A DNA stretch of 64,000 nt from NCBI GenBank assembly GCA_934746515.1, contig CAKVFH010000002.1, positions 65,576 to 129,575 of the forward strand, written 5' to 3'. Shown here in pieces: positions 6,001 to 62,742 of the stretch. The notes beneath the pieces were generated by a model that was not told where the DNA came from, searched no databases, and saw only the letters and a program-made list of their open reading frames with translations. A program made the translations under genes and the position numbers. Numbering within the stretch: the first letter of the stretch is position 1; each line of letters starts with the position of its first letter. The stretch is from an uncultured Clostridia bacterium (GTDB taxonomy: Bacteria; Bacillota; Clostridia; Christensenellales; UBA1242).

Positions 6001-9000
6001 CCTTTCTTTGCTAGGAACGAGCCACCTGCAATTGCAAGTGCAATTCCTGGTCCAATACCTGGGATAGCCAGCGAAACTGCAGCTGCAACACCAGCCAAAG
6101 CCTTTGCACCGAGACCGAGCAATGCATTTCGTTTTGCAATCTTACCTTCTGCTGTAGTTCTCTGATTGTCAGTAAGTTTTCCTGCCATTGCAGTTTGAAC
6201 AGCTTTGAGCTTGTCACCTTTAAGCTTTTGCTCATCTTTTGTGACTTTGCCATTTTCATCAATTCTATTGATTGTCTGAATGACATTGCCTTTCTTATCT
6301 ATTTTAAGATTATCAAAAGTCTGTCCGTCAGCTGTTGTAATTTTGCCATCTTCAAAGAATTGTTCATTGAGTTCATCTACATTGCCATTCTTGATAACAT
6401 TCTTTAATATTGCATTATCACTATAAGCAGATGCTCCAGCTTGTGCACCATTACCAGTTCCACCAGTTTGTGCGCCTTGACTTGCATCACCTTCAGCATT
6501 TCTTGAGTTTGCTTGAGCCGCAGCACCAGCAGCTGCACCAGTTGCAGTAGATCCTGCAGGAGCTGTCAAAGGTTGTCTCATTGCAGGGTTCATTTGAGAT
6601 ATTTGAAGTTGTCCCCTGCTAGCTTTTCTTGCCTTTAATTTATTAGCGGCAAATAGAACACCACCAACAGCAGCTGCACCAAGCAAGCCACCAGTAAGCA
6701 CTCCACCTGCAGCAACTTTAAGAGCATTGCCGCCCCATTTTTTGATATATTGTGCTTTAGTTTGATCGTCTGCTGCTCTATATTTTTTAACAAGTCCAAC
6801 GCCTTTCTTTGCTAGGAACGAGCCACCTGCAATTGCAAGTGCAATTCCTGGTCCAATACCTGGGATAGCCAACGAAACTGCAGCTGCAACACCAGCCAAA
6901 GCCTTTGCACCGAGGCCGAGCAATGCATTTCTTTTTGCAATCTTACCTTCTGCTGTGGTTCTCTGATTGTCAGTCAACTTTCCTGCCATTGCAGATTTAA
7001 CAGTTTGGAGATCTTTACCTTTAAGCTCTTTGCCGTCTTGCATGATCTTGCCGTTCTTAATTTCAAGATTTTCGAGAGTTTGTCCGTTTGCTGTTGTAAG
7101 CTTGCCGTTTTCAAAGAATTGTTCATTTAATTTAGTTTCATCACCATTTTTGATAACATTCTTTAATATTGCATTATCACTATAAGCGGATGCTCCAGCT
7201 TGTGCACCATTACCAGTTCCACCAGTTTGTGCGCCTTGACTTGCATCACCTTCAGCATTTCTTGAGTTTGCTTGAGCCGCAGCACCAGCAGCTGCACCAG
7301 TTGCAGTAGATCCTGCAGGAGCTGTCAAAGGTTGTCTCATTGCAGGGTTCATTTGAGCTAATTGCTGTTGTCCCTTATTAGCTTTTCTTACCTTTAGTTT
7401 ATTTGCAGCAAAAATTGTTCCACCAACCAAAGCCGCACCAAGAACACCACCGCCAAACACGAAGCCCGCACCAACTTTAAGTGCATTTCCACCCCATTTT
7501 TTAATGAGTTTAGCTCTTGTTTGATCGTCTGCTGCTCTATATTGTTTAATGAGTCCAACACCTTTCTTTGCTAGGAACGAGCCACCTGCGATAAGCACAC
7601 CAGCAAGTGGGCCACCAACTGCGGTTGCAATTGCAGCAGCTCCCAGAACGCCAGCTTTTCCAGCAAGTCCAAGAAGTGCACCTTTCTTTGAGCTTTGATC
7701 AAAACCTAACAAGCCATTTGCAACTTGACCGAACTTGCTATTTGCAAACCTATCAGGCAATGCGCTTGCTTCTTGAATACCAAATTTAACTCCAGCTTTC
7801 AATTTAGCATTTCTAACAGTTTTGTCATATTTCTTGGTTTGAGCGTCAACATTTCCTTCAGCAATTTCTTGGCTCTTATCAGACATAACTTTCAAAGCTT
7901 CTTTTCTTACTGCAAGACCTGTTCTTCCTTTCTCTTTCTGTTCTGCCATATAAGCATCATAATACTTTAATGCTGACTTTCCAGCTGCAGTGTTTTCAAG
8001 TTCTGCTTTAATCTTATCAGCATCTCCGTCACTTGAAAGGTTATTTATCTTACTCTTTAATTTTTCAGCATTTGCATCTGTTTTTTGTTTATCAGCTTCA
8101 GCATCGTCAAGACCCTTTCTAGAAACTTTTGCAATTTCTTCATTTTGCATTTCTTCAAGAGTTTTCTTTTTCTGTTCAACCTGTTCTTCAGTTCCATCTT
8201 TTATTTCATTTTCAACAGTCTGACCATTTTGGTTATAAGTTTGATTTACTGTTTCACCTGAACCACTATCTTTGCTATTATCAGACATATTAGAAATATC
8301 AGGATTTTGCTTTATGATATTTTCAAGTTCTTCTCTAGCAATTAGACGAATATGTTCATCGTCTGTACCAATGCCGCCTTGATATTCTTCACCATTATTA
8401 TCAACTTCATTTTCACCTGAAGCATTTACTGGTTCTTCCTCGGCATTTTCTCTGTTATTATTTTGAGACTCTTCACCAGTTCGCTGATTTTCTATGTTTG
8501 TCCTAGATTGACCTTCTGGGTTTTCATCCAATGGGCTCTTTGTTTCTTCAGCGGTTTGCCCATCTTTCTTTTCTTCATTTTCGTCTTTACCATTATCACG
8601 GCTGTTGCCTGCAGGTCTTCCACCAGCTGGGCCACCAGGACCACCAGAAGGACCACCACCACCGCCATCGGCGCCAGCAGCAGCACCAGCAGTTGATTCA
8701 ACACCTTCTTTAAATTTCTCGCCACCTTTCTTAACAGCACCAACAACTTTTTTGGCACCATCTATAATGAACTGCGAACCAGGGATAACACCCGGAGCCA
8801 TTGAAACGGCTTCTTTAAAGCCGCTTTTGAGTGATTTTCCGGAAATCATATCCGTTGCACTCTTCATTGTGGTTTTTACATTATTCTTGACAGCTGCACC
8901 GGTTTTATCCAAGCTTTGACCTTTTCCAACAAGACCCTGAACAAATCCAGGAAGCTCATTGATTAAAGTAAATGCAACAAGCAAGAACAAAATGTAAATA

Positions 9001-12000
9001 AGCTCATTGAGCATATTTGCAGTAATTGGCAATTTTTTCAAGAAATAACTTCCAGAATTTGCAATTGCTTCTTCTGTGAAAATAGTGCTTGAAATTTCTC
9101 TAATTGGTGCAAGTAAAACGAAGAATACATTCAGTCCTATCAAAACACCATAGGTTGAAAGCACTTCACCCATAATTTTTTCACGCAAATCGCCAAATCT
9201 TTTGCCATCATCAATAGGCATTGTTGAAGCCGCAACAGGCATTGCGAGATAGTAAAGCGTAATCATATAGAAACGCTTAATTACACCCCAAAGTGCAGAG
9301 AACAAAACTTTGATAATCAGCACTGAAGCAACTAACAACAGAACATAGTTGATTCCACTTGCTGCATAGAATGTTTGAAGTTTTATGTTTTGGTCAAAGA
9401 AATAGTCAAATGTGATACCAGAAACATTGCCAGAATATTTAAAGGTGCTTGAAACAACTGGTGTATCGCTAACCTGTTGAACCACACCTGTTTTAAATTC
9501 AAATATTCCCTTCCACAAATAAATGTTGATTTCTACCAAATAACATCCAAATGTGTTTCTTGAATAATTTTCAATTTGATATCTAAAACATGAAACAGAG
9601 TCTGAAGTTTGCGCGTTTTCATAAAACTCAAGCATTCTAGCTTCCGCACTTTTGAGTTTAACTTCAAGAGTGTTATTAAAGATACCTTTGGCAGTTTCAC
9701 TATCACCCGCAGTTTGGAATGCAGGTCTTGGAGTCATCTTACCTTCATTTTGAATATAGTAATATCTTGTTCCCCAGTTTGAATCAAAATATTTTGTACT
9801 TTTTAAAACATCAAAATTAAGATTATTTAATTGTGCTAAAACTGATTTTGTAAATGTTCCATAAAAATCTTCAGTGTTTTCAAAAATTGAGAATGTATTT
9901 TTTAAAATACTCTTTGCTTCATCTCCAATTTTGTAATCTTTGATTGTATAAGATTTCAAAACCAAATTTTTAGCTTCTTTTGACGCACTTCCGTTCAAAT
10001 AGCATGGATACAAACCTTTACTTGAGTTGTTATAAGTTTTTGATGTATCAACTTGCAAAACTCCATTCACTTCTTTTGTTTTGAAGTAACTCGATGTTCC
10101 ACTTACATAAATAACATAACAAAAACCTTTTTCAGCAGATGCGAATTGATAATATTTAGTACCACCAACAGTTTCGGTTACGCCAGTCCATTTTAATTTG
10201 TATTCACTTTTAAATGGAGAAGATGAAGATAGCGATATAACAATCTCTGATTCCTGCAAATCACTTGTTGAGTCAACATTAACTTTATAAGTTTTTATTT
10301 CTAAATCTCTTTCACCTTCAGCATACAAACTTCCATTGTTGTAGGTTGCCAAATAATTGCTTAATGCTGAATTATAAACAAGTCTTGTGTAATAATCATA
10401 AGTATTTAAAATTAAATCATTGCCATTTTCTTTAACATCATAATAATAACCGCCGTCTGTATCAGTAACAATTGAATCTTTGCCGTTATCAACTGAAGAA
10501 GTATTCTTTAAATATGTTGGGTTGCCATATCTAGCATCAACTGTATTTGTGTCAAATGTACCTTTTGCCCAAACAACACCCTTGTATTCGCTTGCATAAT
10601 AAACTGACTTAAAACAATAGTTTTTATTATCAATTCTAAAATCTTTGCCGTTTACAAGTGGATAGAAATATTCACTTCCTTTCAAGCAAACAATATATCT
10701 TGAACCTGCAAGTTCATCACCTGTGTTGAATTTTGCAGTATAGATAATATCGTTATCGCTTTCAGCTGGCAATGTATAGTTTCCTGCATATTTTGTAAGG
10801 AATGTAAGAACCTTTGAATCATCTTTAAGTGTTGTTGCAACATTACTTACTTGATTTGTTGCAATATTGTAAGATGATTTACCTAAATTACCGATATTTG
10901 GATTTGTTGGATCAGCAACCGTTCCACTTAATTTATTTGAAATCCACTTTGTGTCAACGCAATAACTTGCATCATTATTGCTAGCATCTTTATATTTGTA
11001 GTTCCAATCAATAAGTGGACTTGTTGCATCCATAATGTAGAATGTCAGGTTGTTATCGCACATATAATCAATAACATCAGCCATAACTGAATATTCAGCT
11101 TTTGACTGAACGTTACCAAATTGACCACCATCGAAGTATGAAGCAACTGACTGTGAATTATACATTATTGCACCAGAATAATTTGCAGCGCCAAGATTAA
11201 AATCTGCGAGAGATTGAGTTCCATAACTTGAAATAGCTTGAGATAAGCTGATGCCTGGATTTACGTAGATGAGAGAATAGTTCCAACTATTTCTGCAAAC
11301 AGTCCTAACAGTTTCACTTCCTTGGTGAATATTGACACTAGAAAGATAGGTTCCGTCATATAAAGCACTAAAGTTTGATTCAAGATTCTTCAAGAGTTCC
11401 TTGCCAACATCATCCGACGCCCAACTTGCATTTTTAGTTAAAATTTCCGCACCTAGAACGCATTTTAGATAATAGTAAATGCCTTCAGCTTTATCTGAAG
11501 ATGCCATAACAAAATAATATTGTTTTTTGTCATCTTTATCTTTAGCTCTAAAACAGAAACCATTAAAGTTTGTAATATCCTTTGGAACCAGCGGATCAAA
11601 AATTGAATCAATGGTTATTTTTCTTGCATTTTTTATGACAGAAAGATAACTTTTTCGTCCAGTAACAACTCCGTCATTACAACTATAATCTTGATAATAA
11701 ACATGAGTTTCGTCATCAATACCATCACCGAAACAGATTTGTCTGTGAGCATCATCAAGATAGAATGTTACTTTATCTGAAGTTGGATAATAGGTGTCAT
11801 TATCAACATAGTGTCTGTATTTGTTTGCAGACTGTGCAGAAACTGAAAAGATTTTTCCACCAAAAGTGTCAGACATATCAACACCAACAGCTTTGATAAT
11901 TGAAGCTAAAATTGCATTTGATGAAACAATGCCCATAACAAGCAAAATTGGAAATACAATAACAAGAGCAATTGCTTTTGCTGAAGATCTGAAAATTGAT

Positions 12001-12446
12001 GCTTTTGAATTTCCTTTACTTCCATCACCAGTCATATAGTCCCATTCACTTTTGATGATTGCATAAATTGTGAAAATGATAAGCAAAACAACAAACACTG
12101 CAATCAAAGCTCTGAATACTTTTTGAACCGAGTCAGCATACAAGAATTTAAAAATCATATCTTCTGAAGTTGCTTCAGACAATTTTCTTGCACCATCTTT
12201 GCTGGAATCAAGCCAATAATCAAGACCAATCAGCTTTTGAATGAAATATTGCAGAAAGTCCATAAATGCAAGGAACCATCTACAAATGAAATAGAAAAAG
12301 TTGGCAAGCCCTTCAAGAATTTTTTGGAAAAAGTGTCCAAAAATATAGCTTCCCAAACCCTTTTCTGTTGATGGTAAAATCATCGACAAGATAAAGTTTG
12401 ATACAAATGAATAAATTTTGCTGACCAATGGCATAAATTCCCCCAT
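1..12446 (-). CDS. Giant polytopic membrane protein, >=4148 aa; C-terminus lies beyond the window edge (partial)
   Basis: Manual minus-strand translation from ATG 12446 (or ATG 12434, preceded by GGGGGA) reads MGEFMPLVSKIYSFVSNF... through ...LTEIPDVSKMSKQE at nt 3 with no stop (4148 full codons). It is missing from the ORF track only because it has no in-window stop. Every listed minus-strand ORF in 1-12446 sits in one other frame. Hydrophobic helices at ~12300-11890 and ~9370-8880, plus Gly/Ala-rich hydrophobic repeats at 7720-4290. Confidence 0.85.
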   Translation of the reverse strand, partial: MGEFMPLVSKIYSFVSNFILSMILPSTEKGLGSYIFGHFFQKILEGLANFFYFICRWFLAFMDFLQYFIQKLIGLDYWLDSSKDGARKLSEATSEDMIFKFLYADSVQKVFRALIAVFVVLLIIFTIYAIIKSEWDYMTGDGSKGNSKASIFRSSAKAIALVIVFPILLVMGIVSSNAILASIIKAVGVDMSDTFGGKIFSVSAQSANKYRHYVDNDTYYPTSDKVTFYLDDAHRQICFGDGIDDETHVYYQDYSCNDGVVTGRKSYLSVIKNARKITIDSIFDPLVPKDITNFNGFCFRAKDKDDKKQYYFVMASSDKAEGIYYYLKCVLGAEILTKNASWASDDVGKELLKNLESNFSALYDGTYLSSVNIHQGSETVRTVCRNSWNYSLIYVNPGISLSQAISSYGTQSLADFNLGAANYSGAIMYNSQSVASYFDGGQFGNVQSKAEYSVMADVIDYMCDNNLTFYIMDATSPLIDWNYKYKDASNNDASYCVDTKWISNKLSGTVADPTNPNIGNLGKSSYNIATNQVSNVATTLKDDSKVLTFLTKYAGNYTLPAESDNDIIYTAKFNTGDELAGSRYIVCLKGSEYFYPLVNGKDFRIDNKNYCFKSVYYASEYKGVVWAKGTFDTNTVDARYGNPTYLKNTSSVDNGKDSIVTDTDGGYYYDVKENGNDLILNTYDYYTRLVYNSALSNYLATYNNGSLYAEGERDLEIKTYKVNVDSTSDLQESEIVISLSSSSPFKSEYKLKWTGVTETVGGTKYYQFASAEKGFCYVIYVSGTSSYFKTKEVNGVLQVDTSKTYNNSSKGLYPCYLNGSASKEAKNLVLKSYTIKDYKIGDEAKSILKNTFSIFENTEDFYGTFTKSVLAQLNNLNFDVLKSTKYFDSNWGTRYYYIQNEGKMTPRPAFQTAGDSETAKGIFNNTLEVKLKSAEARMLEFYENAQTSDSVSCFRYQIENYSRNTFGCYLVEINIYLWKGIFEFKTGVVQQVSDTPVVSSTFKYSGNVSGITFDYFFDQNIKLQTFYAASGINYVLLLVASVLIIKVLFSALWGVIKRFYMITLYYLAMPVAASTMPIDDGKRFGDLREKIMGEVLSTYGVLIGLNVFFVLLAPIREISSTIFTEEAIANSGSYFLKKLPITANMLNELIYILFLLVAFTLINELPGFVQGLVGKGQSLDKTGAAVKNNVKTTMKSATDMISGKSLKSGFKEAVSMAPGVIPGSQFIIDGAKKVVGAVKKGGEKFKEGVESTAGAAAGADGGGGGPSGGPGGPAGGRPAGNSRDNGKDENEEKKDGQTAEETKSPLDENPEGQSRTNIENQRTGEESQNNNRENAEEEPVNASGENEVDNNGEEYQGGIGTDDEHIRLIAREELENIIKQNPDISNMSDNSKDSGSGETVNQTYNQNGQTVENEIKDGTEEQVEQKKKTLEEMQNEEIAKVSRKGLDDAEADKQKTDANAEKLKSKINNLSSDGDADKIKAELENTAAGKSALKYYDAYMAEQKEKGRTGLAVRKEALKVMSDKSQEIAEGNVDAQTKKYDKTVRNAKLKAGVKFGIQEASALPDRFANSKFGQVANGLLGFDQSSKKGALLGLAGKAGVLGAAAIATAVGGPLAGVLIAGGSFLAKKGVGLIKQYRAADDQTRAKLIKKWGGNALKVGAGFVFGGGVLGAALVGGTIFAANKLKVRKANKGQQQLAQMNPAMRQPLTAPAGSTATGAAAGAAAQANSRNAEGDASQGAQTGGTGNGAQAGASAYSDNAILKNVIKNGDETKLNEQFFENGKLTTANGQTLENLEIKNGKIMQDGKELKGKDLQTVKSAMAGKLTDNQRTTAEGKIAKRNALLGLGAKALAGVAAAVSLAIPGIGPGIALAIAGGSFLAKKGVGLVKKYRAADDQTKAQYIKKWGGNALKVAAGGVLTGGLLGAAAVGGVLFAANKLKARKASRGQLQISQMNPAMRQPLTAPAGSTATGAAAGAAAQANSRNAEGDASQGAQTGGTGNGAQAGASAYSDNAILKNVIKNGNVDELNEQFFEDGKITTADGQTFDNLKIDKKGNVIQTINRIDENGKVTKDEQKLKGDKLKAVQTAMAGKLTDNQRTTAEGKIAKRNALLGLGAKALAGVAAAVSLAIPGIGPGIALAIAGGSFLAKKGAGLIKKYRAADDQTKAQYIKKWGGNALKVAAGGVLTGGLLGAAAVGGVLFAANKLKARKASRGQLQIAQMNPTMRQPLTAPAGSTATGAAQAEAAQTNARNAESGQDAVSEYSNSAILKNVIKNGDETKLNEQFFEDGKITTANGQTIEGLEIKNGNIMKDGKKLKGEELKSVQNAMAGKLTSAQRNSAAGKIAIKKAKNSIIAKGLIGAAAGIAMLIPGVGVLAAGGILAGSFLVKKSAGAIKRYRAANDQTKAQMIRRFGGRVMKVAAGAGIAAFTVGTLGMGGVGLAAGLGAAGVGGVMFARSRRRVRRSSAGQLQISERNPSFAQPFTAPSGTTATGAAQAEVYQASLKNDGVSEYSNNEILKNVIKSGDETKLNEQFFEDGKITTADGQTFDNLKIDKKGNVIQTINRIDENGKVTKDEQKLKGDKLKSVQNAMAGKLTSEQRNAAAGKIAIKKARNSVIAKGLIGAAAGAAMLIPNTGVLAAGGILAGSYLVKKGVGLVRKYRAADDQTKAQYIKQWGGNALKVAAGAGIAAFTAGTLGIGGVGLAAGLGAAGVGGALFVKNRKVRVAGARVGGQSYAGNQQVGGYQSYSAAPTGPSVGQVVSTEQTQQIINNAQLPANIKQMIDEAVANGLMLEGANRMAVAAQIANNQAISDSNFVTNTNDAYRNAVANLSGTTGGRVIAADVLSSFATATGTNNLDAANYLISDEQKIAIYKSMMTSEQLDTFNQKLEENANMSIKDQLRLIENSTDRNGLGLNLGISIGAKGLGFTVNDMSVRGKGAKDDSVNVAIAQLLSHQDISSDAVVDSIVRTGYKNNTTRAIAGNYALTLNYQNETTGNITGSDYHQTVFDRAQNNADINAEAIYLYLQNNPEKLKEFKSQYRITDDTKDDVILESIKQGVKDSNSMLGQIKTQDYAKELSAVTAKHVGNGSFKVQAFDLLSKAQQMDYSAHLSANIAAISTGNLYGRTEQEQITERQLSEASFGDKELVSAFMNSSTENKDEIVNKIVAKYFNILGENGNVDINSDEAKKLIAEINSNPNSENGRLFTDLTQKALYNPEEVLVAYAKAKILGKTQEFSSASIRNNTADTVVVESIMKNTPIDLVNEISQQEKDNFAKYSKLQTQSFRSQSAFSEANFELSKLEVGLEGKTLSAKEKEKFEQAKAGVAQLELRAKSDSEKVGQAFVSLGIANNKAYIAREQQLLSELQSKVLSKDSASLEFNTELDKFINGNTEHQMFINRMFGEAGMNISQVKKTSPQYISEKLGELANRRSQELDSRTSALSQTTNKSLSNEEFVKTIMQNSNEQEKDIITNQLVLDAVGIEHENGKVNTDSVGYTAVIDEIISNEQNKAWQDKIQNIDWSSDEAVSVVVGYSKAKILGKQTDKNIDAYISGGEKGKQVNERVLENITKLGSVKSKSPEVQSIVEDYEAYGNLTDEDAQELIGAKSKQTEMYNQVKESFGYKEGGDKATNVAAEKAMKAYIDSNGQNKEILNSAGIKVDQKLLNAVNKKYFTFDETGKTQAENINITAALAEEESSKVQRLEALQKANKTKASLEKQLQAMGYTSGVQAGGVTNTTAERAIDNLKAQYLSGERDISKLNSTAQGFTNASQVAEFLRQTVPAEQLAELKQETSQNGFATLSIAEQNALLAKLAAQDTGATRILKNNNVDINSMDLISKFLNSPAGEALKERLISEITETLFAMNAAKLGLSDSQAYSLLQKQTTTKQSAEVYEQQQGMLISNERVKKELEQTSHSENAEKVISTAAGKVQLLTEAEKQQAIVEGIYSYLSSKAKDQIQSVEKSGVGKEAKTEVERKQQVISSFKENNRELYREAESMTYAQAIAVANRNMIANGGLERQRSVASLIWNNDEFKGKAGALYKAENHGSELDNISEIDRNNWLFNNYSRFISSGSDILKDINKKITDMPVDFRTQASNRKVLNNLNQTEFDNIIREMKTDGEKIVSTAKQNIIAKENINGKLTEIPDVSKMSKQE
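4290..7720. repeat. Intragenic tandem repeat array, ~5 modules with a 717-801 bp period, containing near-identical DNA blocks
   Basis: The AMAGKLT-encoding landmark recurs at ~4680, 5464, 6181 and 6982. Near-identical blocks: 4680-4870 vs 6183-6373, 5740-6193 vs 6541-6994, and 6391-6598 vs 7150-7357 (the last with about 1 mismatch). The duplicated antisense peptides in the ORF track (4692.. and 6195..) show the same thing. Confidence 0.9.
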
Positions 12447-43516: not shown

Positions 43517-44605
43517 CTAACAATTTTTAATTTTTTCCCATGGAAATTCTTCTCTGCCAAAGTGTCCAAAACAAGCAGTTGGCTTGTAAATTGGCTTAAG
43601 CAAATCAAGTTCATCAATAATGTTTTGAAGACGGAAACTGAAGTTTGATTTCACAAAGTTTCGAATTTCTTCTTCCGAAACTTTGTTTGTTCCAAATGTT
43701 TCAACATACAAGCTAACCGGCTCTGCAATGCCGATTGCATAGCTTGCTTGAATTTCGCATCTATCAGCCAGTCCGTGTGCAACAACATTCTTTGCAACAA
43801 ATCTTGCATAATATGCCGCACTTCTGTCAATTTTTGTAGCATTTTTAGAGCTAAAGCAGCCGCCACCAACTCTTCCAACACCGCCATAGGTGTCAACAAC
43901 AATCTTTCTGCCCACACAGCCACTGTCACCAAATGAACCCCAAATTGTAAATTTGCCACTTGGATTGATGATGTATTTAATATTGCCAAGATCATAATCT
44001 TTAAAATCAGCCATAACCTTATCAACAACATTTTGTTTGATGTCATTAAAAATTGTGTCATGATCAAGAGCTTCACTGTGCGAAACACTAACAACTATTG
44101 TGTCAACTGAAATTGGCTTATCGTTTTCATAACAAACTGAAACTTGGCTCTTTGCATCAGCAAAATAGCAGTCGGTTGTTCTTCTAAACTCATCATAAGT
44201 TTTCATAAGTTTGTGAGCAATAGTGATTGGAAGTGGCATAAATTCTGCAGTTTCGTTTGTTGCATAGCCATAAACCATGCCTTGATCATTTGCCATAAGT
44301 TCTTGTTTTTCAACAGCCTGATTGATATCTGGGCTTTGGTGTGAAATTTCTTTTGTGATTATAAAGTCATTTTTATAACCAATCTCTTTCAATGTTTCTT
44401 TTGCAATCTTGTCGTAATCAATATTTGCAGAAGTGGTTGCTTCGCCATAAATGAACAATTTGTCGTCTTTTATTGCGCATTCAACAGCCATTTGTGCATT
44501 TGGGTCTTGACGCAAAGCCTCGTCAAGAAATGAATCTGCAATGGTGTCGCAGGTTTTATCTGGATGCCCAATATTGACAGATTCGCTTGTAATAATTTTT
44601 CTCAT
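43517..44605 (-). CDS. metK: S-adenosylmethionine synthetase
   Basis: Motifs GHPDKTCD, GDSGCVGRK and GGGCFSSKNATKIDRSAAY. The true start is ATG 44605 (MRKIITSESV). The track ORF runs upstream through the riboswitch terminator. Confidence 0.95.
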   Translation of the reverse strand: MRKIITSESVNIGHPDKTCDTIADSFLDEALRQDPNAQMAVECAIKDDKLFIYGEATTSANIDYDKIAKETLKEIGYKNDFIITKEISHQSPDINQAVEKQELMANDQGMVYGYATNETAEFMPLPITIAHKLMKTYDEFRRTTDCYFADAKSQVSVCYENDKPISVDTIVVSVSHSEALDHDTIFNDIKQNVVDKVMADFKDYDLGNIKYIINPSGKFTIWGSFGDSGCVGRKIVVDTYGGVGRVGGGCFSSKNATKIDRSAAYYARFVAKNVVAHGLADRCEIQASYAIGIAEPVSLYVETFGTNKVSEEEIRNFVKSNFSFRLQNIIDELDLLKPIYKPTACFGHFGREEFPWEKIKNC

Positions 44606-44631
44606 AAGTTTTTCCTTTTTATTTATTTCCA

Positions 44632-44762
44632 TAAAAAAATCCCACATATAGTGGGATAAAAGTTCTATTCATCCCATAGAATTCAGCCTTTAGCACCTTT
44701 GCGTTTCGCTAGGTTGCTGTGTGGTCAACGGGGCTGTCCCTAACACACTCTTTATGGATAAA
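44632..44762 (-). promoter_or_regulatory. SAM-I (S-box) riboswitch with an intrinsic terminator
   Basis: The minus strand reads ...CCATAAAGAGTGTGTTAGGGACAGCCCCGTTGACCACACAGCAACCTAGCGAAACGCAAAGGTGCTAAAGGCTGAATTCTATGGGATGA. Then comes the hairpin ATCCCACTATATGTGGGAT followed by TTTTTTT. Confidence 0.85.
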
Positions 44763-56179: not shown

Positions 56180-56416
56180 TTTTCTTTACCACTTTCATTA
56201 TATCATACCAACTTTATTTTGTAATAAAATTTCAATCAATTCTTAAACAAAAAATAAATCAAATCTTTCACCCCCCCCTTTTTCAAAGATATGATTTATT
56301 TTTGCAAATGTAATCACAAAAAAATCCCAATTTCATTTGAAACTATCACAAAGCGCCAAGTACAATTTCATTGTAAACAAAAAAGGAAAGCCATTAAGAC
56401 TTTTCTTTTTTTAGTT

Positions 56417-56921: not shown

Positions 56922-58526
56922 TTAAGCTTTAAAATCAATGGCAGCTTTAACAAAAGATACAAATAATGGATGTGGTTTTGTTGGTCTGCTTTTGAGTTCT
57001 GGGTGAAATTGAACACCAATAAAATATTGCTCTTTATTATTAAATTCAACTGTTTCAACAATATTCTTTTCAGGGTTGACTCCAGAAATGATAAGACCAT
57101 TTTTCACAAGCAAATCTTTAAAGTCGTTGTTAAATTCATATCTGTGTCTGTGACGCTCACTAATTATGTCTGATTTGTAAGATTTATCCATTATTGTTCC
57201 TGGCACAATCTTGCATGGATATGCACCGAGACGCATGGTTCCACCTTTCTTTTTGCCCAATTGGTCTGGCATAAGATCAATCACGAGTTCATTTCCGTCA
57301 CTATCAAACTCTCTTGAACTTGCATTTTTAAGTCCCGCAACATCTCTTGCAAATTCAATAACAGCAATCTGCATACCCAAACATATTCCAAAATATGGAA
57401 CCTTATGAGTTCTTGCGAACTTGCATGCCAAAATTTTTCCTTCAATACCACGAGTTCCAAAACCGCCAGGAACAAGCACACCATGCGCACCTTTTAAAAG
57501 CTTTTCAGCTTCTTCATCGCTTGTGATATCTTCAGCTTCAATCCAGCGAATTTTTACATGCTTGCCATTTTCATAACCTGCATGATTCAATGCTTCAACA
57601 ATTGAAATGTAAGAATCTCGAAGCTTGCAATATTTTCCAACAATAGCAATCTCAACTTCGCCTTTTCTTGATTTCATTTTGTCAAGCATTGCATTCCATT
57701 CAGAAAAATCAATTTTATTATCAGGGAGATTTAATTCACGAACCGCAACTTCATCAAGTTTCTTTTCATGCAAATAACCTGGACATGCATAAAGATCTGA
57801 AAGCGTAACATCGTTAATAACGCAATCGCTTTTAACATTGCAGAACATTGCAATTTTGTTAAGCAAGCCTTCATCAATTTCATTATCACTTCTAGCAATA
57901 ATAATGTTTGGTCTAATGCCCATACCTTGAAGCTCTTTTACTGAATGTTGTGTTGGCTTGGTTTTGTATTCATCAGAACCAGAAATAAATGGAACCAAAC
58001 AAACATGCACAAACAAACAATTTTCAAGCCCAACTTCCAATGAAAATTGTCTAATAGCTTCAATAAATGGCTGGCTCTCAATATCGCCAATCGTTCCGCC
58101 GATTTCTGTAATCAAAATATCAGGATTGTTTGTTTCAATATTTTTTCTAATAAATTTTTTAATTTCATCAGTCACATGCGGAATAATCTGAACAGTTTTG
58201 CCAAGATAATCACCGTCTCTCTCTTTGTTCAAAACATTCCAAAAAACTTTACCACTCGTAAGATTCGAATACTTGTTCAAATTGATATCAATAAATCTTT
58301 CATAGTGCCCCAAATCCAAATCGGTTTCGATTCCGTCATCAGTAACAAACACTTCACCATGTTCGTTTGGATTCATTGTTCCTGGATCAATGTTTAAATA
58401 TGGATCAAATTTTTCCACAAAAACATTATATCCTCTCATCTTCATAAGCCTGCCAAGACTTGCCGCAATGATGCCCTTACCAATACCAGAAACAACACCG
58501 CCTGTTACAAAAATATACTTTGCCAT
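56922..58526 (-). CDS. pyrG: CTP synthase
   Basis: MAKYIFVTGGVVSGIGKGI... and GICLGMQ (glutamine amidotransferase Cys). Confidence 0.97.
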   Translation of the reverse strand: MAKYIFVTGGVVSGIGKGIIAASLGRLMKMRGYNVFVEKFDPYLNIDPGTMNPNEHGEVFVTDDGIETDLDLGHYERFIDINLNKYSNLTSGKVFWNVLNKERDGDYLGKTVQIIPHVTDEIKKFIRKNIETNNPDILITEIGGTIGDIESQPFIEAIRQFSLEVGLENCLFVHVCLVPFISGSDEYKTKPTQHSVKELQGMGIRPNIIIARSDNEIDEGLLNKIAMFCNVKSDCVINDVTLSDLYACPGYLHEKKLDEVAVRELNLPDNKIDFSEWNAMLDKMKSRKGEVEIAIVGKYCKLRDSYISIVEALNHAGYENGKHVKIRWIEAEDITSDEEAEKLLKGAHGVLVPGGFGTRGIEGKILACKFARTHKVPYFGICLGMQIAVIEFARDVAGLKNASSREFDSDGNELVIDLMPDQLGKKKGGTMRLGAYPCKIVPGTIMDKSYKSDIISERHRHRYEFNNDFKDLLVKNGLIISGVNPEKNIVETVEFNNKEQYFIGVQFHPELKSRPTKPHPLFVSFVKAAIDFKA

Positions 58527-58540
58527 AATTCCCCCTTAAT

Positions 58541-58605
58541 TTAAAAAAAATAAAAAAAGAGTTTTTTTTTATGGGCATAGGAATGTCCACAAAAAAACTC
58601 TTTGC
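58541..58605 (-). promoter_or_regulatory. pyrG leader terminator/attenuator hairpin
   Basis: The minus strand reads AAAGAGTTTTTTT-(22-nt loop)-AAAAAAAAACTCTTT followed by TTTTTTATTTTTTTT, immediately upstream of the pyrG RBS (AAGGGGGAA). Confidence 0.55.
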
Positions 58606-59128
58606 TCTCTTTATTTATTCTGACAAGATAATAGCACATCCATTTTCATTTTGCAATAATATTCAATCACAAAATCATATTTGTATATTTTTCACAAAAT
58701 TTAATCATCTTAAACTTTCCACCACCGCACTTAAAAAACCGCAAATTAAAATAAAATCTTTCAACAGATACGCTGCAATTATTTTTAAAAAATTTACACT
58801 ATAAATTGTAATATTTTGCTTTAATTTTAAATAAAAATACATTTTAAATGTAAAATCAAGCAAATTAAAATTTTGTTAATTGAAACAAATTGAAAAAATT
58901 TATAAAAAAATATTTCACTGGTTTGCGCTACTGCCAAATAACCTATGCATTGATATAAAATTAACACAAATTGAAAATAAATTTTACGCTAAAAATATCA
59001 GCAAAATTTTCTCTCTTTTTATAATTGTTTTTTTTGTTTCTAAAAATTTTTTCTTCAATATCATATACTACTTTGTCTTTCCAATATATCTTCACATAGC
59101 AAAAGATAAAACCAATTTTGCCCGTGTG

Positions 59129-59332
59129 TGATATAATTTTAATGATATTGTTCGTTGCACTCTCAATGATATTACTCGCTGCGCTCATAATGATATAATA
59201 TTTCCTTCAATCGTTTTGCTATAGCAAAATATCATTGCTTTAGCAATATCATTCGTGAAACGAATATCATTTCCGTTTGGAAATATCATTGTAAGCAAAA
59301 AGCAAAGCCTTTGCGACTTTGCTTTTGCTTAC
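59129..59332. repeat. Array of the 9-mer AATGATATT (3-4 direct copies, 24-bp spacing) and its complement AATATCATT (4 copies, 17-19-bp spacing), ending in a 16-17-bp-stem hairpin
   Basis: Forward copies at 59141, 59165 and 59189, with a partial copy at 59129. Reverse core ATATCATT at 59229, 59246, 59264 and 59283. Mini-palindromes lie between the reverse copies (GCTTTAGC, CGTGAAACG, TCCGTTTGGA). Hairpin GTAAGCAAAAAGCAAAG...CTTTGCTTTTGCTTAC at 59291-59332. Confidence 0.85.
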
Positions 59333-59333
59333 T

Positions 59334-59387
59334 TGTGTGTATACAACCAAAAGTCTTTTTTTGATTATTTTTCTTTGATTTTGCGAC
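59334..59387. repeat. Direct repeat copy A (~50 bp)
   Basis: TGTGTGTATACAACCAAAAGTCTTTTTTTGATTATTTTTCTTTGATTTTGCGA. A 30-nt core is identical to copy B. Confidence 0.85.
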
Positions 59388-59529
59388 TGATTTTGATTAT
59401 CACACACTTTTTGATTATTTTAGATTTTTTGCTGTTTAATTTTACGACAGCATTTTTTGATTTTGCGAAATCAAAATCATTTTTGTTTTAAACTATCTCC
59501 AACTCATTTTTTTTAATAATTGTGTTCTC

Positions 59530-60129
59530 CTATACATCGTATACAAAAAAATCATTATCTTGCACTCTTGTTATCTTGATATGGTATTCTTTTTCGTAAC
59601 TCAAAACTCTTTCTTTCATTTCATTACTTGTTTTATTCCAATGTGGAAAAAAGTTTATTTTTACAATTCCAAGACCTTTATATGAAGGCAATTCGATATC
59701 ATATTTAGGCTTTGTTCCTTTTTTTAAATCATAAATCCATTTAAGGTCTGTACCAAATATCATTGAGCCTGCGCTCTCGCCAATTATGTTGCCACCATTT
59801 TTCAAATATGTAATAAAAGCACTTTTTAAATCACATTTTTGAATTAATTCAAAGAAAGGTGCGAGATCTCCTCCTGTGATATAAACTATGTCATAATCTC
59901 CCAACTCTTTAATGTTGTTTTCGGTTAATGAAATTTGAGTTACTGACTTTGCTATTTTAGAAAAATTATCTTTTATGATAGGCACGCCTTTTAGATTACT
60001 TCCTGTTAAGGTTGCATTATCGACCAAGAGAACTTTTTTATTTCTAGAAAATGCTTCTATTATTTCATCGCATTCCTTACCTCTTTGTCCGTTCAAATAA
60101 CCACCAGATGTTAATATCAACTTTCCCAT
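59530..60129 (-). CDS. S51 (peptidase E)-family protein, second paralog
   Basis: Motifs ITGGDLAPFFELI, GESAGSMIFG and FFPHW. Start ATG 60129 follows GGAGAG. Confidence 0.65.
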   Translation of the reverse strand: MGKLILTSGGYLNGQRGKECDEIIEAFSRNKKVLLVDNATLTGSNLKGVPIIKDNFSKIAKSVTQISLTENNIKELGDYDIVYITGGDLAPFFELIQKCDLKSAFITYLKNGGNIIGESAGSMIFGTDLKWIYDLKKGTKPKYDIELPSYKGLGIVKINFFPHWNKTSNEMKERVLSYEKEYHIKITRVQDNDFFVYDV

Positions 60130-60257
60130 AAAATATCTCTCCTTTTGCATTATAGCATATTTTTGTTTGTTTTATAGCGTTTATATTATAGTTTATCAAA
60201 AATATTAGTATAATAAACCAATTTATTTTGCTTTCGCTTATAAATTTGGTGTTGTAT

Positions 60258-60292
60258 TCACAATAAAAAGCATTCCATAAATGAAGGCTTTT
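60258..60292 (-). terminator. Terminator downstream of the 60415 gene
   Basis: Stem AAGCATTC/GAAGGCTT (one mismatch) followed on the minus strand by TTTTTATT. Confidence 0.5.
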
Positions 60293-60306
60293 TACTTAGT
60301 TTATAT

Positions 60307-60358
60307 GTGTGTGTACAATCAAAAGTCTTTTTTTGATTATTTTTCTTTGCTTTTGCGA
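60307..60358. repeat. Direct repeat copy B (~50 bp)
   Basis: TGTGTGTGTACAATCAAAAGTCTTTTTTTGATTATTTTTCTTTGCTTTTGCGA. Lies 972 bp from copy A. Confidence 0.85.
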
Positions 60359-60414
60359 TTTCTTTGATTTTTTTAATTCTTTTGATTTATGGTGGTATAA
60401 TCATAAGTTTTCTT

Positions 60415-61362
60415 TTATTCTACAATGTTGCGATTATCACTCATTGAAATAATTTTTTCATATGTTAATTTATCTATATTTATAGGTTTAATTTCTAATA
60501 AGTTATTATTAATTGCTGGCATAAATGTCTGTCTTACTGTCTCAAAATCAGCTTCTGGATTTCTTCTATATTTTACTAAGTCGTGTTCCAATATTGGAAC
60601 AATTAAAATAAGTTTTGCGTTTTTACCTGTTGCCTTTTTGTAAAAGTATATTTTATTAAGAATATAGTAAATCATAAATATACTTGGAGAATACGCTGTA
60701 AATTGCGATTTTATTTCTAAAAAACATTCACAATCATTTTGAACGAAATATCCATCAAATCTAATATTTTTTTCCATAATAGGATCAAAACCTATCATTC
60801 CTTCTTTAAATTGCATATCTTTAAAAATTTTATTTTTATCAATATTTAATTCATTTACTACTTTATCATAAGCATATTTCTCAAAATTTCTAAAAAATAA
60901 TCTTCTATTATGCAAATCGTTACTTAAATCTCTTTCAGCTTCAATTGCATCTTCATCTTTTTGTTCAGATTTATTTTTTTCATCAATATCAGAAGCTTTT
61001 TCAACACCAAGCGATTTTTCATAATCACTACTTAAGATAATATTTTGTGTATTACTTTGCTTTGTTATGAAATTAATTTGTGCTATTAATTGATTTCTTA
61101 AAGTTTCATTCTCCTTTTTTGATCTTTCCAAGTCTTGATCTGTTTCTTTCAGTTTTTTCTTTAAACTGATAAGATTTCCGATACTAAAGCTGTCAAACAT
61201 TTCAGATAAAACAAGGATAATAAGTAATGCAGTACAAATAATAATTCCACCAGTTATTACAAACTTTTGCTCAGAAAGCAAAAATGATATTATTATAAGC
61301 GTAGCAAGAAATAAACTTAAAATTACAATTAAAATTCGTGTAAATATATTTTTATTATTCAT
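60415..61362 (-). CDS. Membrane-anchored coiled-coil protein with a C-terminal PD-(D/E)xK-like nuclease motif
   Basis: Two N-terminal TM helices and a coiled coil (KKKLKETDQDLERSKKENETLRNQL). The C-terminal domain carries FEKYAYD ... IRFDGYF ... CFLEIKS (E / D / ExK spacing). Confidence 0.4.
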   Translation of the reverse strand: MNNKNIFTRILIVILSLFLATLIIISFLLSEQKFVITGGIIICTALLIILVLSEMFDSFSIGNLISLKKKLKETDQDLERSKKENETLRNQLIAQINFITKQSNTQNIILSSDYEKSLGVEKASDIDEKNKSEQKDEDAIEAERDLSNDLHNRRLFFRNFEKYAYDKVVNELNIDKNKIFKDMQFKEGMIGFDPIMEKNIRFDGYFVQNDCECFLEIKSQFTAYSPSIFMIYYILNKIYFYKKATGKNAKLILIVPILEHDLVKYRRNPEADFETVRQTFMPAINNNLLEIKPINIDKLTYEKIISMSDNRNIVE

Positions 61363-61505
61363 ATAACCTCTATGTTTTTGTTTTTTTTTAATTATAACAT
61401 AAAATCCAAAATTATCACATTATTTTACACAAAAATATATATTATTTTTAAACTAATATCAATGCTAAAAATACAACAAATAATTAATTAAAACATAAAT
61501 TTAGT

Positions 61506-62738
61506 TGTTAGCTTGCCTACTTTTGATATCATGATATAATAATAAAAAACTAATGGAACTTCAATGAAAAAGTATACGATCAAATTCAAAGAAATAATTA
61601 TAAAGGAATATAAAAATGGGACAAGTTACAGGGAAATTAAGAAAAAGTATAATGTACCAAAAACTTGTCTTTATGATTGGTTAAAATTATATTCCATAAA
61701 AGTTCATAAAGATGAAAAGATTTTTACATACGAACAATATGAAGATTTGCAGAAAAAGTTTGAAAAAGTATCTAGAGAACTTGAAATTATAAAACTTTCT
61801 CATTGTTTTGCCGACTCTCCAAGGAAACAAAAAGAAGAAGCAATTGAAAAACTAATGGATAAATTCCCAGTAAAAGAAATGTGTAGAGTTTTGAATTTGC
61901 CCACTGGCACATTTTATAACTATCATCTTCGTAGAGTTAAAATCACACAAAATCAAATTCGAGATGAATATCTAAAAGGTGAAATTCTTAAAATTTTTAA
62001 TGAATCAGGTCAACGGTTTGGCACTCCAAAAATAACTGCAAAACTATCAACATTAGGAATAAAAACTACAAAGAGTAAAGTTTCAAATTTAATGAAACAA
62101 ATGAACATAAAAAGTAAACAATGTAAAAAACGAACATTTGAAAAGACTCAAGGTAAACTTCCTTATTGTAGGAATTATCTTAAAAGACAATTTGAACAAA
62201 ACAAACCAGACAAGTTTTGGGTTGGAGATATTACTGCAATTTTTATTAAAAACAATAAGTTTTATCTGTGCGTGATTTTGGACTTGTTTTCAAGAAAAGT
62301 TATCGCATATAGATTATCCAGTCAAAACAATAATAATTTATCTATCAACACTTTTAAAGATGCCTTCGAAATAAGAAATCGTCCTACTGACCTATGTTTT
62401 CACAGCGACCAAGGAACGAATTATACAAGTCATGAATATAGGGATTTACTCAAAGCCTTAAAAGTAAAACAATCATTTTCAAGCAAAGCCAACCCATACG
62501 ACAATGCCGTAGTAGAATCATTCTTCTCAAATTTTAAGCGAGAAGAAATAAATCATCATAGCTACGAGTATTTTGAAGAATTGCAAGAATCTGTTAAGGA
62601 ATATATGAACTATTACAATGATTACAGACCACATTCCAGTCTAAAAAATAAAACACCCAACCAAGTCGAAAACGACTATAAGTTGAGTGTTCTTGCCGAA
62701 CTTTCCGTCTGAAAAGTTATCAGACTTCAAGTCCAACA
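61506..62738 (+). mobile_element. IS3-family insertion sequence (boundaries approximate)
   Basis: Imperfect terminal inverted repeats: TGTTAGCTTGCC... on the left and TGTTGGACTTGAAG... (complement) on the right. An internal extended -10 (TGATATAAT) lies at 61531. Encloses the transposase ORF. Confidence 0.6.
61564..62712 (+). CDS. IS3-family transposase, single fused ORF (HTH + DDE/rve)
   Basis: N-terminal HTH (NGTSYREIKKKYNVPKTCLYDWLK). DDE contexts WVGDITAI, HSDQGTNYTS and NPYDNAVVESFFSNFKRE. Confidence 0.9.
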   Translation: MKKYTIKFKEIIIKEYKNGTSYREIKKKYNVPKTCLYDWLKLYSIKVHKDEKIFTYEQYEDLQKKFEKVSRELEIIKLSHCFADSPRKQKEEAIEKLMDKFPVKEMCRVLNLPTGTFYNYHLRRVKITQNQIRDEYLKGEILKIFNESGQRFGTPKITAKLSTLGIKTTKSKVSNLMKQMNIKSKQCKKRTFEKTQGKLPYCRNYLKRQFEQNKPDKFWVGDITAIFIKNNKFYLCVILDLFSRKVIAYRLSSQNNNNLSINTFKDAFEIRNRPTDLCFHSDQGTNYTSHEYRDLLKALKVKQSFSSKANPYDNAVVESFFSNFKREEINHHSYEYFEELQESVKEYMNYYNDYRPHSSLKNKTPNQVENDYKLSVLAELSV

Positions 62739-62742
62739 CACT

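Follow-up and report, generated by a model that had tools for sequence, protein, structure and literature searches.

What does a dense array of short repeats do in a gap between genes? Is it a set of protein-binding sites, a remnant of a mobile element, or a structured RNA? The array considered here lies in a stretch of 64,000 nucleotides from an uncultured Clostridia bacterium (contig CAKVFH010000002.1, positions 65,576 to 129,575), hereafter the window, to which all positions refer. It occupies a 1-kb gap that extends from pyrG (56922-58526, minus strand) to an S51-peptidase gene (59530-60150, minus strand). A sequence-only reading of the window had noted copies of one 9-mer in both orientations and had proposed a structured non-coding RNA (ncRNA), iterons or a parS-type site, or the recombinase or transposase sites of a decayed mobile element. 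Comparison with related loci shows the array to be one intact copy of a widespread repeated element with a predicted Gut-1 RNA motif (Rfam RF01706) as its core. The same comparison shows the window copy to be an AT-rich Gut-1 variant, which has UGAUAU linkers in place of UGAAAU. We favor, with moderate confidence, the explanation that this is the structured RNA module of a selfish, cassette-like element of the Gut-1 type.

Organization of the Array

The 9-mer array is real, and the coordinates first given for it were off by no more than one base: the minus-strand copies begin one base below the reported core positions. On the plus strand, AATGATATT is found exactly at 59141 and 59165 and as an 8/9 copy, AATGATATA, at 59189. 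Four exact copies follow on the minus strand at 59228, 59245, 59263, and 59282, spaced 17, 18, and 19 bp. Counting over the window upholds the positional clustering. Ten exact copies are present where 2.54 are expected (sd 1.57; a count of 10 was reached in 0 of 100 shuffles). Six are packed, together with the 8/9 copy, into 160 bp, and the remaining four are scattered at about the chance rate. The reported 24-bp phase applies to 59141, 59165, and 59189, and fails for the supposed partial copy at 59129 (TGATATAAT), which is 12 bp out of phase.

The spacers between the packed 9-mers are differing palindromes, as had been claimed (TTGCTATAGCAA, GCTTTAGC, CGTGAAACG, and TCCGTTTGGA). Their stems are lengthened by the ATT and AAT ends of the flanking 9-mers, and only 3 nt remain unpaired between hairpins (ATC on the plus strand, GAU on the minus strand). 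This predicted pairing shows that the 9-mer is not an independent site: its AAU and AUU ends close the neighboring hairpins and its central GAU is the 3-nt linker. Across the family, 175 unique spacers separate 9-mers of the same sense, and 142 of them have two or more outer Watson-Crick pairs, as against about 11 in shuffles. An alignment of 41 elements contains four hairpins with a 9-mer ahead of each. In the stems of 40 relatives, 98% of cells are paired and 134 cells are changed on both sides, versus 36.8 after shuffling (0 of 500 shuffles reach the observed number). The stems of the mini-palindromes are kept by compensatory changes and covary while their sequences differ, which bears out the early suggestion of selection on structure.

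A longer helix, P1, closes the domain of four hairpins (Table 1). In the window it has 10 Watson-Crick pairs and one G·U, and it is part of the minimum-energy fold. Across the family, P1 is 98% paired and six of its pairs have changes on both sides; slid controls give 31-53%. Two of the six pairs lie outside hairpin 1, column 5/122 (UA 25, GC 5, GU 4, AU 3) and column 7/120 (UA 28, AU 8, UG 4). Hairpin 1 is 97.7% paired across the family, with changes on both sides at 4 pairs and a U·G base in 15 sequences. Sliding the partners of P1 and hairpin 1 brings pairing down to 31-64%. Because they share the same 5' strand, P1 and hairpin 1 exclude each other, and the element is predicted to have two conserved, mutually exclusive helices.

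The distal module has spacers of a different kind. In the subgroup to which the window belongs, the 15-nt distal spacers take a tandem-G·A hairpin form. Of 45 unique 15-nt distal spacers in the family, 27 fit this pattern, 22 of these with all four flanking pairs complementary, and a few distal spacers have Watson-Crick pairs in place of the G·A. Loop types are mirrored between the proximal and distal modules, and the two are therefore read as inverted copies of one unit type. A long perfect palindrome, in which the proximal half would be the reverse complement of the distal half, was rejected; only the 9-mers and the loop types are mirrored, not the stems. As predicted from its pairing, the window copy is structurally intact, with four perfect hairpins and P1 kept.

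The hairpin of 16-17 bp that had been described at 59291-59332 is present at the right end of the array. A terminator scan with the consensus did not flag it; its stem is A/T-rich and its U-tracts are interrupted on both sides. We take it, by sequence and layout, to correspond to the bidirectional terminator found in relatives immediately after the CCA end of tRNA and transfer-messenger RNA (tmRNA) genes. With this hairpin as the terminator, the minus strand is the one on which the element reads, and the tRNA-proximal end is at the right. A further hairpin, reported as terminator-like at 59459-59490, also exists. It is almost pure A/T, yielded no site in the terminator scan of 58400-59650, and lies outside the element.

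Two kinds of side observation concern the array and its flank. The public gene call on the source contig includes an open reading frame (ORF) of 75 aa (58961-59188, minus strand), which begins within the distal module so that its first codons are repeats. It has no family match and is probably a spurious call. A coding explanation of the 24-nt phase through this ORF was rejected, since the periods in relatives are 20-24 nt and out of frame. Between 59333 and 59529, beside the array, stand further short repeats that are not part of the conserved element in relatives: TTTTTGATTATTTT twice (59358, 59408), TT(C/T)TTTGATTTTGCGA twice (59371, 59453), TTTGCGACT twice (59310, 59380), and CACACAC runs.

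Table 1. Features of the window element and of its surroundings.
Feature	Position	Strand	Sequence or remark
Terminator-type hairpin	59291-59332	minus	A-tract/stem/U-tract: GTAAGCAAAAGCAAAG-TCGCAAAGG-CTTTGCTTTTTGCTTAC
Proximal domain	59189-59291	minus	four 9-mer + hairpin units closed by P1; full-length match to covariance model R1
P1, 5' strand	59279-59289	minus	AUGAUAUUUCC; first 9-mer + 5' arm of hairpin 1
Hairpin 1	59269-59284	minus	AUU-UCC-AAAC-GGA-AAU; 5' arm common to P1
Hairpin 2	59251-59265	minus	AUU-CG-UUUCA-CG-AAU; family 98.5% paired; 20-21 sequences compensatory at two inner pairs
Hairpin 3	59234-59247	minus	AUU-GC-UAAA-GC-AAU; family 97.5% paired; 18 double changes at inner pair
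Hairpin 4	59213-59230	minus	UUUUGC-UAUA-GCAAAA; fourth hairpin here in 41 of 41 aligned elements
P1, 3' strand	59195-59205	minus	GGAAAUAUUAU; element center; overlaps -10-like TGATATAAT of the plus strand (59191-59199)
Distal module	59141-59197	minus	three AAUAUCAUU (plus-strand AATGATATA at 59189, AATGATATT at 59165 and 59141); 24-nt phase
Distal hairpin D1	59174-59188	minus	AUGAGCGCAGCGAGU; NN-GA-NN-loop-NN-GA-NN, tandem G·A, GNA triloop
Distal hairpin D2	59150-59164	minus	GAGAGUGCAACGAAC; tandem-G·A type, one flanking mismatch
Tail, element end	59124-59140	minus	degenerate 9-mer AAUUAUAUC (plus GATATAATT, 59130-59138) + CACACAC run
Strain-specific 4.1-kb islet	58618-62741		ssrA 3' end to pyrG leader; GC 0.24-0.29
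Vestigial second element	56285-56416	minus	behind tRNA-Ser(cga): same-style terminator (...TTGTTTAC; ...CTTTCCTTTTTTGTTTAC), then AATGAAATT twice, 26 nt apart

Relationship to the Gut-1 RNA

Gut-1 is the only meaningful Rfam match in the region at a permissive threshold. RF01706 aligns to 59224-59291 on the minus strand over model positions 1-77 of 77. The match scores 31.2 bits (E 1.9e-4 to 3.4e-4), short of the gathering score, which is 50. The alignment contains three hairpins, with UGAUAU replacing UGAAAU of the consensus linker (A/G)UGAAAU. The Gut-1 RNA was described from 43 human-gut metagenome sequences as a structure of three hairpins, without organism or function (Weinberg et al., 2010, Genome Biol 11:R31, PMC2864571). 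It was called a certain RNA and not cis-regulatory (Weinberg et al., 2010). Membership can be judged by at least three consecutive hairpins, joined by an R-UGA(A/U)AU linker and separated by 3 unpaired nt; the window array has four such hairpins joined by AAUGAUAUU.

Homology to sequences that pass the Rfam threshold was found as well. Ten relatives of the same plan score 50.6-62.1 bits for Gut-1 on the tRNA-sense strand, above the gathering score, and in locus L039 the distal module also exceeds the threshold, on the opposite strand. We built a covariance model, R1, from 40 relatives that include the threshold-passing ones, with the window left out. It matches window positions 59189-59291 at full length with 76.7 bits on the minus strand (E 4.1e-13) and with 29.4 bits on the plus strand. 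Because ten relatives pass and R1 gives the window 76.7 bits, the array is homologous to threshold-passing Gut-1 sequences. Two elements (L016, L193) are 89.7% identical to that of the window across 145 nt.

The window array resembles published Gut-1 in its consecutive short hairpins, the conserved R-UGA(A/U)AU linker, the 3 unpaired nt between stems, the variable and covarying stems, and the strand relative to an upstream terminator and tRNA. It differs in its score below threshold, its UGAUAU linkers, its shorter stems, and its lower GC. The flanks of the original Gut-1 alignment (PMC2864571) have the order tRNA 3' end, terminator, array, and inverted AUAUCAC copies, an order on which the text of that paper is silent. 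A literature search for later work on Gut-1 or RF01706 found none, and a search with the 9-mer itself gave chance matches only (primers, miRNAs). As far as the searched literature shows, the features new beyond published Gut-1 are the address behind tRNA, tmRNA, and 5S rRNA genes, the competing helices P1 and hairpin 1, the inverted distal module with tandem-G·A hairpins, and the link to a PF05635 gene, all described below or above. The fourth hairpin and the assignment to metagenome-assembled genomes (MAGs) of Clostridia are likewise absent from the published description.

Distribution and Genomic Address

A search of related genomes, which the sequence-only reading had called for, led to a comparison of about 200 related loci, mostly in MAGs of Clostridia. 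Their layout is constant: the 3' end of a stable-RNA gene, the terminator hairpin, the four hairpins with P1, and the inverted distal module. A pattern scan of one genome per species, with three packed copies as the query, gave at least 119 loci. Among the matches listed, about 50 are unrelated regular tandem repeats and about 70 have the irregular 16-22-bp spacing and hairpin spacers of the window array. The MAG labels of these 70 are Clostridia, Eubacteriales, Christensenella/Christensenellaceae, Oscillospiraceae, Bacillota, and Bacilli. A stricter, convergent pattern was found in 85 metagenome contigs and one viral contig. Wherever both orientations occur in the family, AATGATATT copies come first and AATATCATT copies follow. 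Some genomes hold more than 10 near-identical copies, in part as tandem units of 55-196 bp.

The elements have a common address. Among the matches listed, 23 of 71 clusters have a tRNA or tmRNA gene no more than 150 bp away, and all 23 face the 3' end of that gene. When elements were oriented by their internal helix, 35 of 57 had the 3' end of a same-strand tRNA or tmRNA gene 21-128 nt upstream, 34 of them at 21-48 nt. Five of the others lie at the edge of a locus, and most of the remainder are tandem second units or follow unrecognized tRNA-like ends. The stable-RNA hosts comprise twelve tRNA identities and tmRNA. On one metagenome contig (Ga0123356_10042462, locus L188) the array stands after a 5S rRNA gene, recognized by eye, and its terminator. 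Between the CCA end and the first 9-mer there is only the A-tract/stem/U-tract hairpin, a bidirectional terminator. This hairpin belongs to the repeated unit, because it is nearly identical behind different tRNAs of one genome. At the right end of the window element, a tRNA search found none.

The comparison thus shows a multi-copy, patchy element family that is linked to stable-RNA genes, at their 3' flanks, and to PF05635 genes. It also supplies hosts for Gut-1, namely Clostridia-class MAGs that include Christensenella-like, Oscillospiraceae, and termite-gut Bacillota genomes. Two variants of the layout were seen. In MAG JBAYZO01 and related metagenome contigs (L022, L064, L098, L007), the distal module has grown to at least 16 copies with a 55-bp three-hairpin unit, and whole elements recur every 163-196 bp. 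Three loci (L027, L103, L121) carry elements of the AATGATATT type followed by GC-richer elements of the AATGAAAT type, that is, classical Gut-1.

Association With a PF05635 Gene

In many relatives a gene of about 114 aa follows right after the distal module on the same strand. Its product matches Pfam PF05635, the family of 23S rRNA-intervening sequence proteins (E 3.4e-24). Proteins of this family are uncharacterized; they are known from insertions in rRNA genes and are homologous to Avd, an accessory protein of diversity-generating retroelements (DGRs). The gene is present in 20 of 205 fetched loci (1.31 Mb), array-linked in all 20, and in 19 it begins 0-214 nt past the last AATATCATT. In the 5S-linked locus L188, alone among the 20, it lies at the far side in the opposite, convergent orientation. 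Broken remnants of PF05635 genes occur in other loci, and a tblastn search for such a remnant in the window found none; the early remark that no cognate protein gene is nearby is true for the window. Among 62 downstream ORFs, judged by eye, PF05635 is the sole recurring family.

Two loci (L043, L021) suggest how such units might move. In each, a direct repeat of the proximal array flanks a segment made of the P1 3' strand, the distal module, and the PF05635 gene. This layout is the pattern expected from a small circle recombined into a resident array; unequal crossing-over could also give it.

The Folding Strand

If the folding molecule is RNA, we consider it probable that the tRNA-sense strand folds, which is the minus strand in the window. 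The minus strand is preferred because the Rfam Gut-1 match, the G·U pairs in P1 and at the base of hairpin 1, the strand-specific G·A hairpins, and the orientation of tRNA and PF05635 genes all agree with it. Across the family, P1 has about 17-21 G·U cells versus 2 A·C cells when read on the tRNA-sense strand. The tandem-G·A hairpins would turn into pyrimidine mismatches on the other strand. Fold z-scores are -5.4 and -6.9 for the minus strand and -3.7 and -4.5 for the plus strand; the first value of each pair belongs to 59189-59291, at -28.2 kcal/mol (minus) and -24.8 kcal/mol (plus). The linked tRNA and PF05635 genes of relatives are oriented as a minus-strand element would require. The sequence-only reading had proposed an ncRNA of 300-350 nt on the plus strand. 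A structured ncRNA is indeed the best-supported kind of explanation, on the minus strand and with a length of about 210 nt (59124-59332).

A plus-strand small RNA (sRNA) of about 130 nt, near to that first proposal but shorter, would be the alternative among the RNA explanations. It would start after the -10-like TGATATAAT at 59191-59199, run through four AAUAUCAUU and hairpin units, and stop at 59291-59332, with a mirror-image sense transcript going the other way. A TGATATNAT-like sequence is found at this position in all relatives inspected, and promoter, structured body, and terminator make up the classical layout of an sRNA gene. The proximal loops are of the G..A type on the plus strand, like the distal loops on the other strand. 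When both halves are pooled, the mini-hairpins have 11 G·T and 3 A·C on the strand that reads AATATCATT. However, a start 7 nt past the -10 would omit the P1 strand at 59195-59205, although P1 covaries outside hairpin 1, and on the plus strand A·C mismatches would replace the G·U pairs in P1 and at the base of hairpin 1. The orientation of Gut-1 in Rfam and in the curated alignment is on the opposite strand. The extended -10 elements noted earlier are present as sequence at 59129 and 59191, but they lack a -35 element and the promoter scan passed none at the array. More simply, they are by-products of the sequence constraints on the 9-mer and on P1. We regard the plus-strand sRNA as decidedly unlikely.

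A Proposed Selfish Cassette With an RNA Module

On the explanation favored here, in which the array is the RNA module of a selfish cassette, the element would be transcribed in sense, as part of the stable-RNA transcript, through read-through or processing, or else from its center. The sense RNA would fold as a chain of hairpins able to switch between hairpin 1 and P1. It might serve in cis as leader or scaffold for a small selfish cassette, and in its complete form this cassette would encode the PF05635 protein. The repeats of hairpin plus linker would be likely binding units for a multimeric RNA-binding protein, for which the PF05635 product is the evident candidate. The window copy would be a solo derivative of the cassette.

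Several points weigh against this explanation. About four-fifths of the fetched loci, the window included, have no PF05635 gene, and gene linkage is the sole ground for guessing that the PF05635 protein binds the array. The window array has no Rfam match at the gathering threshold. Transcription of the element, its strand, and its ends are all inferred from sequence. A terminator stands between the stable-RNA gene and the element, so that sense transcription needs read-through or an unmapped promoter, and the promoter scan found nothing convincing at the array, its only credible promoter being upstream of pyrG. In the mini-hairpins, G·T and A·C counts are 7:4 in the proximal and 3:3 in the distal module. 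Pairs of this kind are too few to decide the strand, and pooling the counts points another way than splitting them. Loop polarity is mirrored, with 21 of 44 proximal loops U..C and 19 of 41 distal loops G..A on the sense strand, which leaves room for divergent transcripts or for folded single-stranded DNA. G·T pairs, tandem G·A, and GNA triloops are stable in single-stranded DNA too.

Folding of DNA is the basis of another alternative, in which the array is a structured single-stranded site of a mobile cassette, comparable to attC or to repetitive extragenic palindromic sequences (REPs) and bacterial interspersed mosaic elements (BIMEs). It would fold on the lagging-strand template and serve as the entry site for units of array and PF05635 gene, and RNA structure would be incidental. 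The stems keep structure and not sequence, as in attC, and the element is multi-copy, tandem, and patchy. The direct repeats around the PF05635 segment in L043 and L021 are what such a site would leave, but they could arise by the unequal crossing-over mentioned above. The folding strand is the gene-sense strand and also the lagging-strand template, as the GC skew of the plus strand is uniformly negative over the window. Mini-hairpins with a GNA triloop and tandem G·A are very stable in DNA, and those of the window type occur in the family. Yet inspection of the 62 downstream ORFs by eye, without a profile scan, revealed no integrase, HUH nuclease, or reverse transcriptase, and the elements have no defined target-site duplication. 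The 9-mer is kept across distant lineages, unlike in typical families of REPs or miniature inverted-repeat transposable elements. We consider a single-stranded DNA site unlikely, and the RNA module preferable.

A bolder proposal can be made from the same observations, and we put it forward tentatively, as a rather doubtful one. Gut-1 arrays together with a PF05635 gene might form a previously unrecognized class of very small selfish cassettes that settle just past the terminators of stable-RNA genes (tRNA, tmRNA, and 5S rRNA). The array of hairpins would be both the structured attachment site and the RNA scaffold for a multimeric four-helix-bundle protein. From the layouts of L021 and L043, the size of the cassette is estimated at about 0.3-0.8 kb. 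If true, the cassette would be the tRNA-flank counterpart of the PF05635-bearing intervening sequences within rRNA genes, and solo arrays such as that of the window would be its non-autonomous derivatives.

These results have consequences for two long-standing unknowns. Gut-1, an orphan since 2010, gains a strict genomic address directly behind stable-RNA terminators in sense orientation, a fuller structure, and a candidate protein partner in the PF05635/23S rRNA-intervening sequence/Avd-like family. The Gut-1 RNA and the PF05635 proteins outside DGRs can now be tested together. In addition, the R1 model can be used to annotate such arrays, with fewer of them mistaken for iterons, promoters, or small ORFs such as the 75-aa ORF called here.

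Comparison With Known Systems

Intervening sequences (IVSs) of 23S and 16S rRNA that carry a PF05635 ORF are similar to the array element in having a small ORF of the same family on an element tied to a stable-RNA gene, with self-complementary flanks. The likeness is one of layout. An IVS lies inside the rRNA gene and is excised from the rRNA, whereas the array element follows the terminator of a tRNA, tmRNA, or 5S rRNA gene and has its ORF outside the paired region.

The Avd protein is pentameric, has a four-helix-bundle fold, and works while bound to a structured RNA. The homology of PF05635 proteins to Avd is the likeness to DGR RNAs, and by this analogy a repeated-unit RNA beside a PF05635 gene suggests an RNA-protein complex. 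The array elements differ from DGRs in that a reverse transcriptase, a template repeat, and a variable repeat were not seen beside them by eye.

REP/BIME, BOX, and Correia elements are multi-copy clusters of intergenic palindromic units. Like the array, they occur in both orientations after genes or terminators and are modular, tandemly expandable, and patchy. They conserve the sequence of the palindrome per lineage, while the stems of the array vary freely and its linker is conserved across distant lineages. The placement of the array is also specific to stable-RNA genes. We know of no transposase partner of the array element, such as the REP-associated tyrosine transposases (RAYTs).

Integron cassettes combine one ORF with one attC site that is defined by structure, and in L021 and L043 the unit likewise stands between direct repeats of the site. 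The array element is without an integron integrase (by eye among the downstream ORFs), an attI site, or long cassette arrays. attC sites are 60-140 nt long, compared with 17-24 nt for the hairpin units of the array.

Origin of the Window Copy

SmpB homologues led to four close relatives with 86-94% identity, and in all four the element behind ssrA, the tmRNA gene, is absent. The closest (L207) has an SmpB 94% identical to that of the window and the same tmRNA tag peptide. It aligns to the window up to 62742, the tmRNA 3' end, and again from 58617, the pyrG leader. The interval between ssrA and pyrG is 4124 bp in the window versus 408 bp in L207 (6831-7238). The window therefore has a strain-specific islet here (Table 1), which contains an IS3-family transposase gene, a 315-aa ORF, the S51-peptidase gene, the array, and AT-rich non-coding DNA. 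The window copy is a solo, ORF-less orphan without an adjacent stable-RNA gene, and was either carried into the islet or retained in it. Behind tRNA-Ser(cga), a vestigial second element is supported by 9-mers with one mismatch at 56329 and 56364 and by a weak R1 match (17.5 bits, E 0.73).

The islet bears on the proposal that the array is double-stranded DNA bound by protein, be it iterons or a parS-type centromere left by a decayed replicon, arm sites for a recombinase, or a roadblock placed after genes that are highly transcribed. Such an array would account for six or seven invariant 9-mers with variable spacers, for two inverted sets, and for three copies in 24-bp phase, and the islet beside an insertion sequence (IS) at an integration hot spot would be a fitting location. 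A protein site would leave unexplained the compensatory changes in the spacers, the covariation of P1, the G·U bias, and the tandem-G·A hairpins. Near the array there is no gene for rep, par, or an integrase; the neighbors there are pyrG, the S51-peptidase gene, the 315-aa ORF, the IS3 transposase gene, ssrA, and smpB. A BLAST search of 72,556 plasmid and 50,697 phage records, which covers the plasmid comparison suggested at the outset, found nothing similar to the array. The single match on a viral contig has neither hairpin spacers nor a tRNA nearby and was rejected as chance and not a phage feature. The terminus of the IS3 copy, TGTGTTGGACTTGAAGTCTG, occurs nowhere else in the window and bears no relation to the 9-mer. 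We judge these double-stranded readings, taken jointly, very improbable. With them fall the iterons or parS-type site and the transposon-end architecture of the sequence-only reading. Its idea of a decayed mobile element keeps its mobile flavor, since the element is multi-copy, patchy, tandemly duplicated, and located in a strain-specific islet, and loses the clustered recombinase sites.

The IS3-family transposase gene (61564-62741) encodes 382 aa in one fused frame, and its terminus lies 1-2 nt past the CCA end of ssrA. No match to a second IS3 inverted repeat was found in the window; perhaps this copy is truncated, or perhaps its other end has degenerated. The boundaries of elements showed no consistent short duplication. 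One candidate history, a 3.4-kb IS3-borne insertion with TGTGT...ACACA ends and an AG/AAG duplication that would have split ssrA from its terminator and array, was rejected for want of that second inverted repeat. Nor is it borne out by the relatives, in which the whole of 58618-62741, array included, corresponds to 408 bp in L207 and the array is lacking in all four. The short interval of L207 and L209 contains a partial duplicate of the 3' part of tmRNA that ends in ...CTCGCCACCTCCACCA. This looks like the scar of an element once integrated at ssrA.

Other Features of the Window

The 315-aa ORF (60415-61362, minus strand) occupies the stretch of lowest GC (0.24). It has no Pfam match and a marginal NCBIfam match to a Mycoplasma-type membrane protein family. 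At the start of the window, one ORF of more than 4148 aa (3-12446, minus strand) runs off that edge; it has no Pfam match at E<=0.001, and its GC rises to 0.42 in part. A SAM-I riboswitch (RF00162, 52.6 bits) is located at 44671-44760 on the minus strand, upstream of the gene at 43517-44647.

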